From assembly GCA_951406725.2 (NCBI GenBank), contig OX597815.1:103168001-103232000 (forward strand): 64,000 nucleotides of DNA, written 5' to 3'. This stretch comes from Octopus vulgaris. Lineage: Eukaryota. Below, piece after piece: positions 7,433-55,338 of the stretch. Position numbers and translations under genes: made by a program. The notes beneath the pieces are model-generated. The model made no database searches. It saw only the letters and a program-made list of their open reading frames with translations, and was not told the DNA's origin. The first letter of the stretch is position 1, and each line of letters opens with the position of its first letter.

Positions 7433-8030
7433 AAAGAAAGTTGGTTTGTGAAACCACGTGGTTGAATATATAGAAAATAGTAAAAAGTGAAAAAACTACA
7501 GAAGGCTTGTTTTAAAAGGTTAAAAAATATATATTTGAGTCAATATGTCTGAAGAATATGATAAATTTTTTTCTTACAATGACAACTACTACCACAATTT
7601 TTAATCTTTCCATTTTACCAATGTGCTATCGGATCATCAATACAAATTAGACTAAACAAGGAAACATTCTTCATTGAAAAGAACAAGCCCAGACTTAACC
7701 ATTCCAACATACTTATACAGAGAAATTCACACCAAGGGAAAGGCAAAAGATTTTAAGCGATTATCTCCCTTACACCGGAAGAAATCACTTATTACCTCCC
7801 CTTATCTAGAACTCCTTTCAACATAAACATAACGATAACTCTCCTCAACATAAACATAACGACGTAAGAAATTTGAAAAGCTAAACGCGAAACCGGTCTT
7901 TCTTCTAAACTATGTCATTGTAAGAAAAAAATTTATAATATTCTTCAGACATATTGACTCAAATATATATTTTTTAACCTTTTAAAACAAGCCTTCTGTA
8001 GTTTTTTCACTTTTTACTATTTTCTATATA
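7433..8030 (+). mobile_element. Penelope-like remnant with inverted terminal arms
   Basis: 7466-7584 is the reverse complement of 7913-8030; interior encodes LIFPFYQC..IRLNKETFFIEK (same as the GIY-YIG C-terminus at 54460-54560); flanked by (TA)n. Confidence 0.85.
7866..7904 (+). ncRNA. Degenerate minimal hammerhead ribozyme
   Basis: aagaaa/tttctt stem I, gc-taaac-gc stem II, GAAA, palindromic ccgg, GUC site; CUGANGA box decayed (tttgaaaa). Confidence 0.6.
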
Positions 8031-8263
8031 TATATATATATATATATATATATATATATATATATATATATATATATATAAATACATATATATATATACA
8101 TATATATGTATATATATATGTGTATATACATATATATGTACAAAATATGAATTAGAGATAAAACCACCATTAGACAATTCAAACAGTAATAGACATAAAC
8201 CAATACTTAAATAACAAATAATATAAATATAATCAATATAATATATATATATATATATATATA

Positions 8264-11200
8264 TCTCTATATAAACGGCAGTTTGTCTGTGCGTGCTTCT
8301 GTGTGTCTGTTTTCTCGTACCCTCACCCTGACCACGGCTTTCAACCGATTCTGATGAAACTTGACACACACATAGCCCAATGTCATAATTCAAAACTAAC
8401 GCAGCGAAAATTTTGAAAAGTTCCCCCAGTTCTGAAAAAAATTGATAAATTCGACATGGGGTCGAGAATCATAAACATGAACCACAGACTGTCTAGGGGA
8501 CGCAACTCGAGAATCTAAGCTTTTTTTATGCAACGCATTATCTATGGTAGTTTTCACAACTTGCAATCGATTTTCACCAAACTCATGGTGAAGCTTAATG
8601 TTACCCTAAGAAACTCAATTCTGACTTTAGTTTTCCATGCAATACCTTACCATCAGAAACAATCGATAAAATCATGCCATTTTGGGAAATCGCGTTCAAA
8701 TTCAAGATGACATATTTTCGACAATATCTTTCACAAATTGGCAGGAATCTTTTTTTTTTTCACAACGAGCATCATGTCTGCTCCAAGGAGCTATATAGCC
8801 CTTTTTATTCCAATAGGATACATTATTGGAAAAAATCGGTTAATTTAATCATATGTGGCACACATAGCAAACAAATTTGTGTATTAAACACAAACCAGAC
8901 TGTCTAGGGGACGCAACTTGACCTTTTTAGCTATCGATAATTCGATCCAACCAATTCCTACCAGGAAGAAATTACATTCGAGACTTTACCCCCAACACCG
9001 CCACTTCTGCTAATAGCTGCTGCAGCCGCAAGTTATTCGAATACTTTTTTTGTTTAAACTTTCTTTATAACTACCACCCCAAACGTTTTACCTTCAATTT
9101 TTGACGTACCCTAACGGTCCTCGGACGCTACTTGCAAACTCTTGGTTTATTATAAACCACTTTTGTCGTGTGCATCAAAAAACTTTTCCTTTCGTTTGTT
9201 CAGTTTGATCACTTTTGACTTTTTCGTTGTTGTCACTCACATTGCTGCCAGCTTTTTGGCCGTTTTTGTACATTTTTATACATTTTCGGATACTTACCCC
9301 ACGAGCTCCTTTTTATTACACCTTTACCAAACACATTGCTATCCACCAAAATACTTACCCCACGTGTTCCTTTTTATTACACCTTTGCCAAACACATTGC
9401 TATCCACCAAAATGCCACCGAAGAAGAGAAGGACCCTCCTCAGCCCTCGGACGGCCAAGGCATCGGCTGCTAGGGCTAGAAGGGCACGCGAGACCCACGA
9501 GGAAACCGCCTTGCGCCTCTCGCAAACAGCTTCCCGTTATGCCGCTGCTCAGGCATCTGAAACTACTAGCGACCGTTCTACCCGACTTGCAAGGGTCGCA
9601 GCGTACAAATCTTCCCTCCGCTCGAGGTTGACGAAAGAGCAACAGTCCAGCCAAAACATGCGGGCTTCTTACTGTGCTTCCATCCGCAGAGCTCGCGAGA
9701 ACCCCGAACAAAGGGCCATTCGGAATGCGGCTAACGCCACTAGCACCGCCAGGACACGATCTGTCGAAACCTCACAGCAGAGGAGAACTCGCCAATGTGC
9801 TGACGCCGCAAACAAAGCCATGGCCAAAGCTGCCGGAACACCTCAACAGAGGAGAGCTCGCCAAGCTGCTAACGCCGCAAACAGCCAGGGCTCGATCTGC
9901 CGAAACTCCACACCAACGGACTATTCGGACATCCAGACATGCCATTAGCACTGCTTCTGCTAGGGCTTCAGAGGGTGCTGAGGCGAGAGCTGAAAGGCTT
10001 TCAAGGGATGCCACTGCTACCGCTGTCGCACGTGCATCTGAATCTGCTGAGGCACGGTGCACTCGACTTGAGAGTATCAACAAACGTCGGGATATCATTC
10101 GTGGTGTACGTACCCCTGCCCCCGCTTTCTGGTTGTCACTAGCATTCAACTACGACGCCACAATTAACTTCTCCTTGCGTGACGACATCAAGATAGGGTC
10201 AATGACAATTGTATGCCAGTTTTGCAAAGCCAAGAAATGGCCCGGAGAGCCACCTGGTTTGTGCTGCTCTGGTGGCAAAGTGGACCTGCCACCCCTACGG
10301 GAACCACCTCAACCACTGAAGGATCTCGCGGCGGGTTTAACCCCCGATTCGTCACAATTCCTTGAAATAATTCGAAAGTACAACTGCTCATTCCAAATGA
10401 CCTCTTTCGGGGCCAAAATTCCTCCCAGAGAAGGCTGGATGCCTACTTTCAAAGTGCAGGGACAGGTCTACCATCTTATTGGGTCACTTCTGCCAGACGA
10501 GATTCAGCAGTCTTCTTTCCTCCAAATATACTTCATTGCCGACTACAACCACCAGGTTGATGCACGCCTTGGAATAATACCGGGTACAAGCTATGTTCCC
10601 CGCAAAGACATTCTTCTCCGTCTCCAAACCATGCTTCATGATATCAACAGCTACGTCTGCAGCTTCAGATATGCCTTGGACAGTGCTCCATCTCCAAACT
10701 TCACCGTTGTCATTGATGCTGATAAACGACCCCACGGGGAGCACGAACGCCGTTTCAACGCACCTGCGTGCAACGAAATTGCCGCAGTCATACACGGAGA
10801 GCAACACAACAGCCGTGACATAATCATCTCCTCCCGTGGTAACAACCTACACAGGATCAGCGAGACTCACAGATCTTATGACGCGCTTCAGTATCCATTG
10901 CTTTTCCCTTATGGGGAAGACGGCTACCACTTCGGAATTCCTTTACGGCAGCCCTTCAATCAAACTACTGCGGCATCAAAGACGGTTTCCTGCAGGGCGT
11001 TCTACTCATACCGGTTCATGGTCAGGGAGGGTGAGTTCAACTTATCGCCCCGTTGTCGTCAGCTATTCAACCAGTTCGCCGTCGACATGGCCGCAAAAAT
11101 GGAATCGGAAAGGCTGCTATACATTAAACTTAATCAGACCAAACTTCGCTCCGACTCCTACATTCATCTCCGTGACGGTTTGCAACAAGAAAATGACCCT

Positions 11201-53918: not shown

Positions 53919-54002
53919 TCGGCTGACGAGTACGAGCCATCTGTATTCACTGCATTTTTTGTAGCTTATTAAAGATGTCCTCGTACGAAACGATCGTACC
54001 GA
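53919..54002 (+). ncRNA. Type I hammerhead ribozyme with intact catalytic core
   Basis: Stem I tcgg/ccga, CTGACGA, stem II gtacgag/ctcgtac extended by catct/agatg, GAAA, palindromic acgatcgt, GUA site (cleavage after 53998). Confidence 0.85.
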
Positions 54003-54058
54003 GATTTTAATCCATTCTTGTTGCTTTTTTCCTATTTATATATATATATATATATATA

Positions 54059-55338
54059 GATCAATAGATGGTGGGGTTGTGTTGACCGCACGTGGAGAAA
54101 TGATAAGTAAGGAAAAAATTTTTTTAAAAATGCAGAATGCTCAAATGAAAGAAAATTTTAATAAAATGAGAAAATGATAAAATATATAAATAGGAAGGAA
54201 GTTTGATCAACGAGGAGTTTGCATATTAAGTTGTGTTTGGAATTTTTCAAAATCAAGACTAACTTCTCCTGTTCCTCCGAGAACCTTATCTACGTTCTCA
54301 CATGCGCTGGTTGCCAACATAATTATGTGGGACAAACGAGTCTCCCGTTACGTAAACGAGTAACGGTGCATAAAGAACAAATAAATCTCCCGGAATACCG
54401 ACAAATTCCACTGAGTGACCACTTAGACTCATGTGCTAAAGACTTAAACCCCAAATTCTATATATTCCCCTTCTACCAATGTAAAGACGGGATCACCACA
54501 CAGGAGAGAATTAACAAGGAGAATCTCTTTATTGAAAAATTCCAAACACAACTTAATATGCAAACTCCTCGTTGATCAAACTTCCTTTCTCTACCTCACT
54601 CTTCATGGATGGGCTAATATATAAAGATGCCATGCATTCATCACTTCAAGCTAAAACTTATATTGTTTAAATATCATTTTCACTATTGTTGTTATTACTA
54701 TCATTTTTATTATAAATGATATGACAATTTGAAATGCAATTGTCTATGCAGTTTTATATTATTAGAAAATAATATAAATAAAGTGTTAAAATCTGAAAGT
54801 TAAGTTAACAAGCAATTATATAAAAAAGATAATGCAAATGAAGCTAAAATGATAGTTTTATAATTTAGGTTTTATTGAAGAACTCAAAAGAGTTGTCTCC
54901 CCTTACTCACAACACAGGAACTGAAGAACCAGGACCACAATTACTACTACTTCCTGTCCTGCAACATGCTGAATTTAACAACACAACACATCACATGCTC
55001 TTAATCCCTTTGGATCTTAACACCTCAAGGTAATTTTTTGGTAAACAACCATAAAACTCAAGATACACAACGAACTCACAATGTATCGGAGAACTTATTT
55101 TTTAATTTTTGTACATTTTTATCATTATTCTTTTACAAAAAACAATGCAATTTTCTTTTTTTCCCCTTTCTAATTTTTAAAAAAACTTCTTAAAACATAA
55201 ATATTCTTGACAAGTCATACAATGACGAAAACCGGTTGAATAAATATATATTTATATATTTTATCATTTTATCATTTTATTAAAATTTTCTTTCATTTGA
55301 GCATTCTGCATTTTTAAAAAAATTTTTTCCTTACTTAT
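54059..55338 (+). mobile_element. Penelope-like 3' fragment (GIY-YIG and pLTR) with nested inversions
   Basis: ORF to 54575: NLIYVLTCAGCQHNYVGQTSLPLRKRVTVHKEQI..ERINKENLFI; inverted arms 54103-54192/55249-55338 and 54195-54250/54532-54587. Confidence 0.9.
55202..55242 (+). ncRNA. Degenerate minimal hammerhead ribozyme
   Basis: tattc/gaata stem I, ttgacaa (decayed CUGACGA), gtca/tgac stem II, GAAA, accggt palindrome. Confidence 0.65.

Follow-up and report, generated by a model that had tools for sequence, protein, structure and literature searches.

The window analysed here is a stretch of 64,000 nucleotides (nt) from Octopus vulgaris (assembly GCA_951406725.2, contig OX597815.1, positions 103,168,001 to 103,232,000, forward strand), taken from a (TA)n-rich assembly of 2.8 Gb in 227 contigs. 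It contains three insertions, all of them 5'-truncated Penelope-like elements (PLEs) in (TA)n with an inverted partner arm and a tail on one of the two arms. In copies sampled from the genome, the 5' ends of such arms show a boundary at the predicted cut of the hammerhead ribozyme motif; this boundary is real, and it depends on the family. Positions within elements are counted from the predicted cut, +1 being the first base 3' of it. The parts of the insertions, delimited by sequence comparison, and two further copies are listed below (RT stands for reverse transcriptase and ORF for open reading frame).

7435..7584, minus strand: family 1, inverted short arm with 3' end and 38-nt tail, 5' end at +15
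7583..8031, plus strand: family 1, long arm with the end of the RT/GIY-YIG ORF, 3' region, hammerhead and tail-less end running into (TA)n
7864..7905, plus strand: family 1, minimal type I hammerhead motif with U3-A8 core and palindromic helix III, predicted cut after 7898
27692..27977, minus strand: family 3, tail-less arm, 5' end at +14
27987..28325 (right end approximate), plus strand: family 3, tailed arm, 5' end at +14
45020..46102, minus strand: longer non-coding copy of family 3 reading through the hammerhead, core box from 45244, predicted cut after 45157
52798..54040, plus strand: PLE copy of family 4, a negative-case family, with canonical hammerhead, predicted cut after 53998
54058..54192, minus strand: family 2, short inverted arm, tailed, with its 5' end at +12
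54192..54250, minus strand: inverted 59-nt piece of the ORF end, a copy of 54532-54590, between the family 2 arms
54246..55338, plus strand: family 2, long arm with the end of the endonuclease ORF, 3' region, hammerhead and tail-less end
55202..55242, plus strand: family 2, hammerhead variant with U3-A8 core, an extra A after GAAA and GUU, predicted cut after 55237

In insertion 1 the arm at 7435-7584 is 99% identical to 7913-8024; the short arm carries the 38-nt tail, the long arm (7583-8031) has none, the hammerhead motif ends with GUC at 7898, and two letters are common to both arms at their junction. Insertion 2 is composed of three pieces, an inverted 3' end, the inverted 59-nt piece of the ORF end and the long arm. 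Both arms of insertion 3 begin at +14 and are separated by 9 inserted letters. A preliminary description of the window had placed the inverted arms 15, 12 and 14 nt from the site in these three insertions. The first value was recovered after the GUC site at 7898 and the third for both arms; in insertion 2 the offset of +12 from 55237 stood, but the two-arm layout did not, since the third piece had been missed. The assignment of the elements to PLEs was borne out.

Copies were gathered with exact patterns near the 3' end of each family, and matches were taken in genome order; the samples are thus position-ordered and come from the first contigs only. Family 1 is represented by 98 of the first 100 of 1180 matches (without the long copy L030; 122 arms), family 2 by the first 100 of 637 matches, minus the two of the window and the ambiguous L321, with repeats counted once (98 arms), and family 3 by the first 78 of 2440 matches, with the ambiguous L172 dropped and duplicates merged (82 arms). 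For family 4 the first 64 of 174 matches yielded 62 tailed arms, six rows being scored as read-through and two dropped as copies of one junction. Family 5 was located by a general hammerhead pattern (13 insertions, 24 ends). The window's own copies were kept out of the counts. Arm ends were placed by BLAST against natural copies, followed by hand curation of the end table. Three family-1 copies with internal gaps were scored as read-through, and four apparent family-1 ends at -31, belonging to a subfamily with other upstream sequence, were re-placed. Loci chosen as best matches are biased to long copies and were excluded from the counts, except L082 and the six family-4 rows, which stand in the position-ordered lists. 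Chaining over multiple references ran arms on into their inverted partners (L034, L035, L042, L045, L250) and was used only for copies of diverged subfamilies. End counts are expressed as arms ending in a bin over arms reaching it.

Going upstream through the bins +36..+72, -1..+35, -38..-2, -75..-39 and -112..-76, the counts for family 1 were 7/108, 37/101, 12/64, 9/52 and 2/43; the bin at the cut differs from the next one upstream (p 0.015) and from +36..+72 (p 6e-8). Family 3 gave 7/48, 19/41, 0/22, 2/22 and 1/20, its ends at +36..+260 being imprecise because of low complexity; the step at the cut is sharp (19/41 versus 0/22, p 8e-5), and no end lies between -52 and -2. The step of family 2 is weaker: 4/98, 15/94, 5/79, 7/74 and 0/67, with p 0.058 for 15/94 versus 5/79 and p 0.007 in narrower bins (14/93 versus 2/79). 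A sliding scan found the best step at 0/+1 in family 1, at -8..-3 (tied) in family 3 and near -60 in family 2. The comparison of breakpoints with the cut, suggested in the preliminary description, thus brought out the expected step in families 1 and 3 and less clearly in family 2; it did not in families 4 and 5. Chance, or ordinary 5' truncation favouring short complementary DNAs (cDNAs), might be invoked, as five families were examined, two of them negative, in samples restricted to the first contigs. Such an account is barely credible, given the climb of the family-1 stop rate from 7/108 to 37/101 and a family-3 step which sits 350-400 nt from the 3' end. The distance from cut to 3' end differs among families 1-3 (134/165, 100/145 and 346/404 nt), hence the pile-up is not a minimum-length effect. 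Upstream junctions vary between copies, and the insertions are therefore separate events.

Between -1 and +35 families 1-3 together have 71 ends, with medians of 20, 7 and 10 in the three families. Only 7 of them fall at +12..+15, which equals the expectation for an even spread; the fixed offset of 12-15 nt proposed from the window copies is rejected, as the ends range over the whole of -1..+35. Thirteen lie at -1..+2 (p 0.04 versus even), among them both arms of L212 and both of L152, although some of these are ambiguous by 1-3 bases through shared letters; 22 lie at -1..+6. Two loci with ends at +1 have unusual inserts. At L152:1040-1075 both arms reach +1 and are followed by an insert in which 5-6 letters agree with the hammerhead core, as though helix III had been passed over; this single case (n=1) may reflect a jump across the cut. 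At L227:1150-1381 an arm runs to +1; next come a copy of +12..+38 and the partner arm, an arrangement resembling a template jump where an RNA ends.

Hammerhead motifs were identified by pattern; among the 150 Rfam matches listed for the window, out of 159, microRNA models matching microsatellites dominate and hammerhead families are absent. The canonical type I features (core boxes with the 3-8 pair, helix II, palindromic helix III, helix I and NUH) were found in families 1, 4 and 5. A U3-A8 core, a described hammerhead variant (PMC4209133), predominates in families 1 and 2. The family 2 motif has the extra A after GAAA in 47 of 56 copies tallied (the commonest two forms) and the triplet GUU; that of family 3 has a helix I of 2-3 base pairs (bp) without a G-C closing pair and a long helix II. 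The odd-looking cores, U3-A8 in particular, are traits of the families rather than signs of decay. Predicted folds are weakest in families 1 and 2 (-3.5 and -4.4 kcal/mol) and strongest in families 4 and 5 (-25.5 and -19.0 kcal/mol).

Taken together, the counts suggest that the predicted cut likely bounds cDNA length in some families and that the boundary likely reflects hammerhead cleavage in vivo. Several observations weigh against this. The choice of bin width followed inspection of the first 17 family-1 pairs, with families 2-5 examined later, and the end table depends on hand curation. Families 1-3 were picked because their window copies showed the offset; families 4 and 5 were picked regardless of breakpoints, and both are negative although theirs are the most canonical-looking hammerheads. 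Tailed arms of family 4 gave 5/58, 2/53, 6/51, 4/45 and 5/41 in the same bins, with no pile-up at the cut (2/53 versus 6/51), and its tail-less arms 0/27 at -1..+35. In family 5 only 1 of 24 ends lies at -1..+35, and 16 head-to-head gaps are consistent with an even spread. Ribozyme activity is doubtful, judging from the motifs, for family 2 (extra A, GUU) and family 3 (very weak helix I). Solo copies of family 1 taken alone have no significant step (7/31 versus 4/24). Most near-cut ends are 5-35 nt short of the cut, a shortfall for which cleavage alone does not account. In families 1, 2 and 5 a second cluster of ends lies at about -25..-60, just beyond the hammerhead's 5' edge, and is not explained by cleavage. 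Finally, in the available part of a study on an anole PLE, mutating the ribozyme left insertion in vitro normal, and the cut coincided with neither the start nor the end of any RNA-seq read (PMC11167929).

The shortfall and the two clusters could be seen as signs of an uncut RNA on which RT stalls before a folded, dimerised or protein-bound hammerhead, with ends gathering also past its far edge. Most ends do stop 5-35 nt before the cut, ends in families 1 and 2 cluster on both flanks of the motif with few inside, those of family 5 cluster at its outer 5' edge, and the ribozyme was dispensable in vitro according to the accessible text of PMC11167929. Nevertheless, helix I holds 22 of the 71 ends in its 3' strand (-1..+6), numbers drop at the cut, and the long helix II of family 3 gathers no ends. 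Fold strength also speaks against stalling, since the step is present where folds are weakest (families 1 and 2), while the strongest have no pile-up on their 3' side; stalling is considered unlikely.

The second cluster comprises, in family 5, 8 of 24 ends at -60..-25 (p 0.002 versus even); in families 1 and 2 it falls off beyond about -60. Neither cleavage nor stalling accounts for it; it could be a transcription start site or a hairpin-protected cDNA end. A further possibility is that the boundary itself is another RNA 5' end, a transcription start or processing site coinciding with the hammerhead. PLE promoters are located in the pseudo-long terminal repeat (pLTR), as far as stated in the available part of PMC6765202, and the cluster at about -26..-60 in families 1 and 2 could be such a start. 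Since the step lies within a few bases of the predicted scissile bond in three families of different sequence, the coincidence would be quite improbable.

The arms of a pair have a regular form. Exactly one tail was present in 37 of 39 family-1 pairs and two tails in none, and the same pattern was found in families 2-5. Tails measure 38 nt in family 1, 45 in family 2, about 58-75 in family 3 and about 112 in family 4. Of the 37 one-tailed pairs, 21 have the longer reach in the tail-less arm and 13 in the tailed arm; in 3 the reach is equal. At least one letter is shared at 28 of 39 family-1 junctions, as judged by BLAST ends. Partner arms of family 1 differ by 2.4% on average, compared with 4.4% from other copies, and the partner was closer than the median other copy in 27 of 33 cases, which suggests one RNA or one source locus for both arms. 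The divergence between partners and the single tail also make an assembly artefact, named in the preliminary description as a ground for refutation, unlikely. A DNA transposon with terminal inverted repeats (TIRs), or a miniature inverted-repeat transposable element (MITE), was considered and rejected: arm lengths vary in every copy and the two ends are unequal, so that fixed symmetric TIRs are lacking.

The one-tail rule fits the earlier proposal of two separately primed cDNAs joined head to head, and together with the shorter tailed arms it fits two RNA-templated primings at the start sites of the anole PLE. Alternatively, a single cDNA might fold back and, by self-priming, be copied into the inverted arm, with a junction following local palindromes such as AATT at the family-1 cut. 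Self-priming has been proposed for PLE palindromes (PMC3846280, in its available part), several pairs are near-symmetric (31/31, -114/-114, 1/1), and the L212 junction is a self-complementary 4-mer. It is very improbable, because in 21 of the 37 pairs the shorter arm is tailed and the longer is not, so that it is not a plain copy of the longer one, and because unpaired arms of family 3 show the step on their own (12/26 versus 0/14, p 0.003).

The preliminary description had also held that the ribozyme sets the inversion breakpoint and generates the inversions. This was not upheld: most paired arms end elsewhere, both arms read through the hammerhead in 10 of 41 family-1 and 18 of 25 family-2 pairs, and families 4 and 5 form like inversions without a pile-up at the cut. 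Naiad PLEs also form inversions, without canonical hammerheads according to the accessible text of PMC8557442. The ribozyme likely limits the length of the arms in some families, but the inversion is not its doing. Ends close to the cut are more frequent among paired arms than among solo or other arms in family 1 (30/63 versus 7/31) and family 2 (12/50 versus 3/44); in family 3 they are not enriched there (7/15 versus 12/26 unpaired). Partner arms tend to lie on the same side of the cut in family 1 (18 pairs both short, 13 mixed, 10 both long, p 0.03) and family 2 (5, 2 and 18, p 1e-4); the tendency was not significant in family 3.

Two palindromic stubs were found in more than one copy. Three family-4 loci on two contigs (L286, L287, L349) have one inverted junction in common (-17/-20), from which it appears that the stub itself was recopied. 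At L071-L073 a small family-2 palindrome, turned inside the hammerhead (-28/-29), is repeated four times in tandem.

The coding capacity of long family 1 copies comprises RT, a Cys-rich linker and an endonuclease-like end. The protein of copy L028 matched RVT_1 of Pfam above the cut-off (E 1e-7); GIY-YIG was not matched by Pfam in this protein, but it was in a fragment of family 4. Residues 380-550 of L028 had Atlas look-alikes with a score of 0.96, GIY-YIG being present in 42% of the members. A similar RT ORF was recognised by direct reading in the family 2 unit of L159, without a Pfam match, and its first ATG lies about 175 nt 3' of the predicted cut. In L159 and L067 a 4.6-kb unit follows a partial copy (a partial tandem with pseudo-LTRs); this arrangement was not seen among the family 1 copies examined. 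Families 1 and 2 share the CxxxxCxxC motif of the Cys-rich linker between RT and endonuclease, a linker common to Neptune and Nematis (PMC8557442, available part). Family 3 is non-coding. Many of its copies begin at -1021, and in these copies of about 1.4 kb (L082, L084, L085, L090, L142, L181), with their fixed 5' end far upstream of the hammerhead, no ORF was found; it is treated as a putative non-autonomous element with PLE-type ends, and an autonomous partner was not found. Family 5 (L353-L389, e.g., G000:C1:20002100-20004800) is a retrozyme-like tandem unit of 359 nt which bears a hammerhead and is inserted in (TA)n as head-to-head arrays, one end tailed and the other tail-less. This form of insertion directly supports, on structural grounds, mobilisation by PLE proteins.

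Some further features of the window were noted. A short minus-strand 3' end akin to family 3 (8143-8260; 82% to 28175-28257) adjoins insertion 1, and a pattern built from it had matches in the window only. The interval 32467-33950 is a separate element with 205-nt inverted arms (95%) and microsatellites on both sides, in which neither a hammerhead by pattern nor a match to the PLE ORF used was found. Minus-strand remnants of another PLE RT (17457-18097; 47-51% to the family-2 protein) sit within inverted repeats at 16305-16485 and 18265-18458.

On balance it is probable that the arms are two cDNAs primed on opposite strands of (TA)n and that those of families 1 and 3, less clearly of family 2, stop at the end of an RNA template cut beforehand. 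The course of events may be pictured as follows. Each pair begins at two different 3' points, one with the tail and one without. Going by in vitro work on another PLE, the protein would nick both strands, and RT would set out from a pair of internal sites which lie 100-400 nt downstream of the hammerhead. A cDNA made on uncut RNA would read through and stop anywhere upstream; one made on cut RNA could not pass +1, and the resulting stubs would be bounded there because such an RNA still has the start sites a short way downstream of the 5' end created by the cut. Most cDNAs from cut RNA would fall short, or lose 5-35 nt before joining, and few would keep +1. A few letters, shared or inserted, appear to join the ends, and at times a third piece lies between them, as in insertion 2. 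Family 5 may escape by circularising, by analogy with what has been proposed for retrozymes.

Inverted 5'-truncated partners and one-sided tails of 30-40 bp are published features of endonuclease-containing (EN+) PLEs, as are microsatellite targets, microhomology junctions and a hammerhead in the pLTR; in the available parts of these accounts truncation and inversion points are not tied to the hammerhead cut (PMC8557442, PMC3846280). Poseidon PAc of Anolis is alike in vitro in having two internal RT start sites which bound the tail, cutting and extension of both strands, AT-rich targets and a hammerhead about 100 nt upstream of the start sites; it is unlike in that the ribozyme was unneeded and no RNA ended at the cut, as far as the available text goes, whereas here copies of three families pile up (PMC11167929). 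The minimal hammerheads of metazoan PLEs share type I form, palindromic helix III, the U3-A8 variant and close motifs on opposite strands; the extra A and GUU of family 2 and the long helix II of family 3 set the present motifs apart from those in the accessible part of PMC4209133. In R2 and L1Tc a self-cleaving ribozyme, HDV-like and thus of another type in another element class, likewise sets an RNA 5' end where cDNA would stop (PMC6765202, available part). In PLEs, unlike in these, cut RNA would give stubs because the RT start sits just downstream of the cut. Animal non-LTR retrozymes resemble family 5 in the tandem hammerhead-bearing unit; family 5 has the PLE one-tail, head-to-head form, and its ends are not piled up 3' of the cut (10.64898/2026.07.22.740005, available part).

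Twin priming of L1 involves a priming event on each of the opposite strands and leaves an inversion with a microhomology junction, but what is inverted there is an internal segment from further upstream. In the present insertions the 3' end is the starting point of each arm and is therefore duplicated. The inverted layout is thus already known; for the boundary at the predicted cut no printed account was found. In a literature search, with most subscription journals and all supplements outside it, no publication connecting the hammerhead cut with the points of PLE truncation came up, and a prior remark may exist.

A wider reading is offered tentatively, at rather less than an even chance: 5' ends of PLE copies would record, family by family, cleavage in vivo, atypical motifs cutting in the germ line and the cut RNA being primed twice to give head-to-head stubs, while canonical-looking ones would remain uncut or be ligated into circles. 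The atypical motifs (U3-A8, extra A with GUU, helix I of 2-3 bp) would then probably be helped by the element protein or by RNA dimers. As to whether PLE hammerheads cut in vivo, and why, evidence in vivo is stated to be absent in PMC4209133, and PMC11167929 found the ribozyme dispensable in vitro and no RNA ends at its site. A step at the scissile bond among the 5' ends of genomic copies would, if true, be evidence from within the organism obtained through DNA, and the step pattern singles out which families merit testing. The boundary would also account for a share of the short palindromic MITE-like repeats in (TA)n, and breakpoint histograms would serve to assay the activity of thousands of ribozyme variants in vivo.

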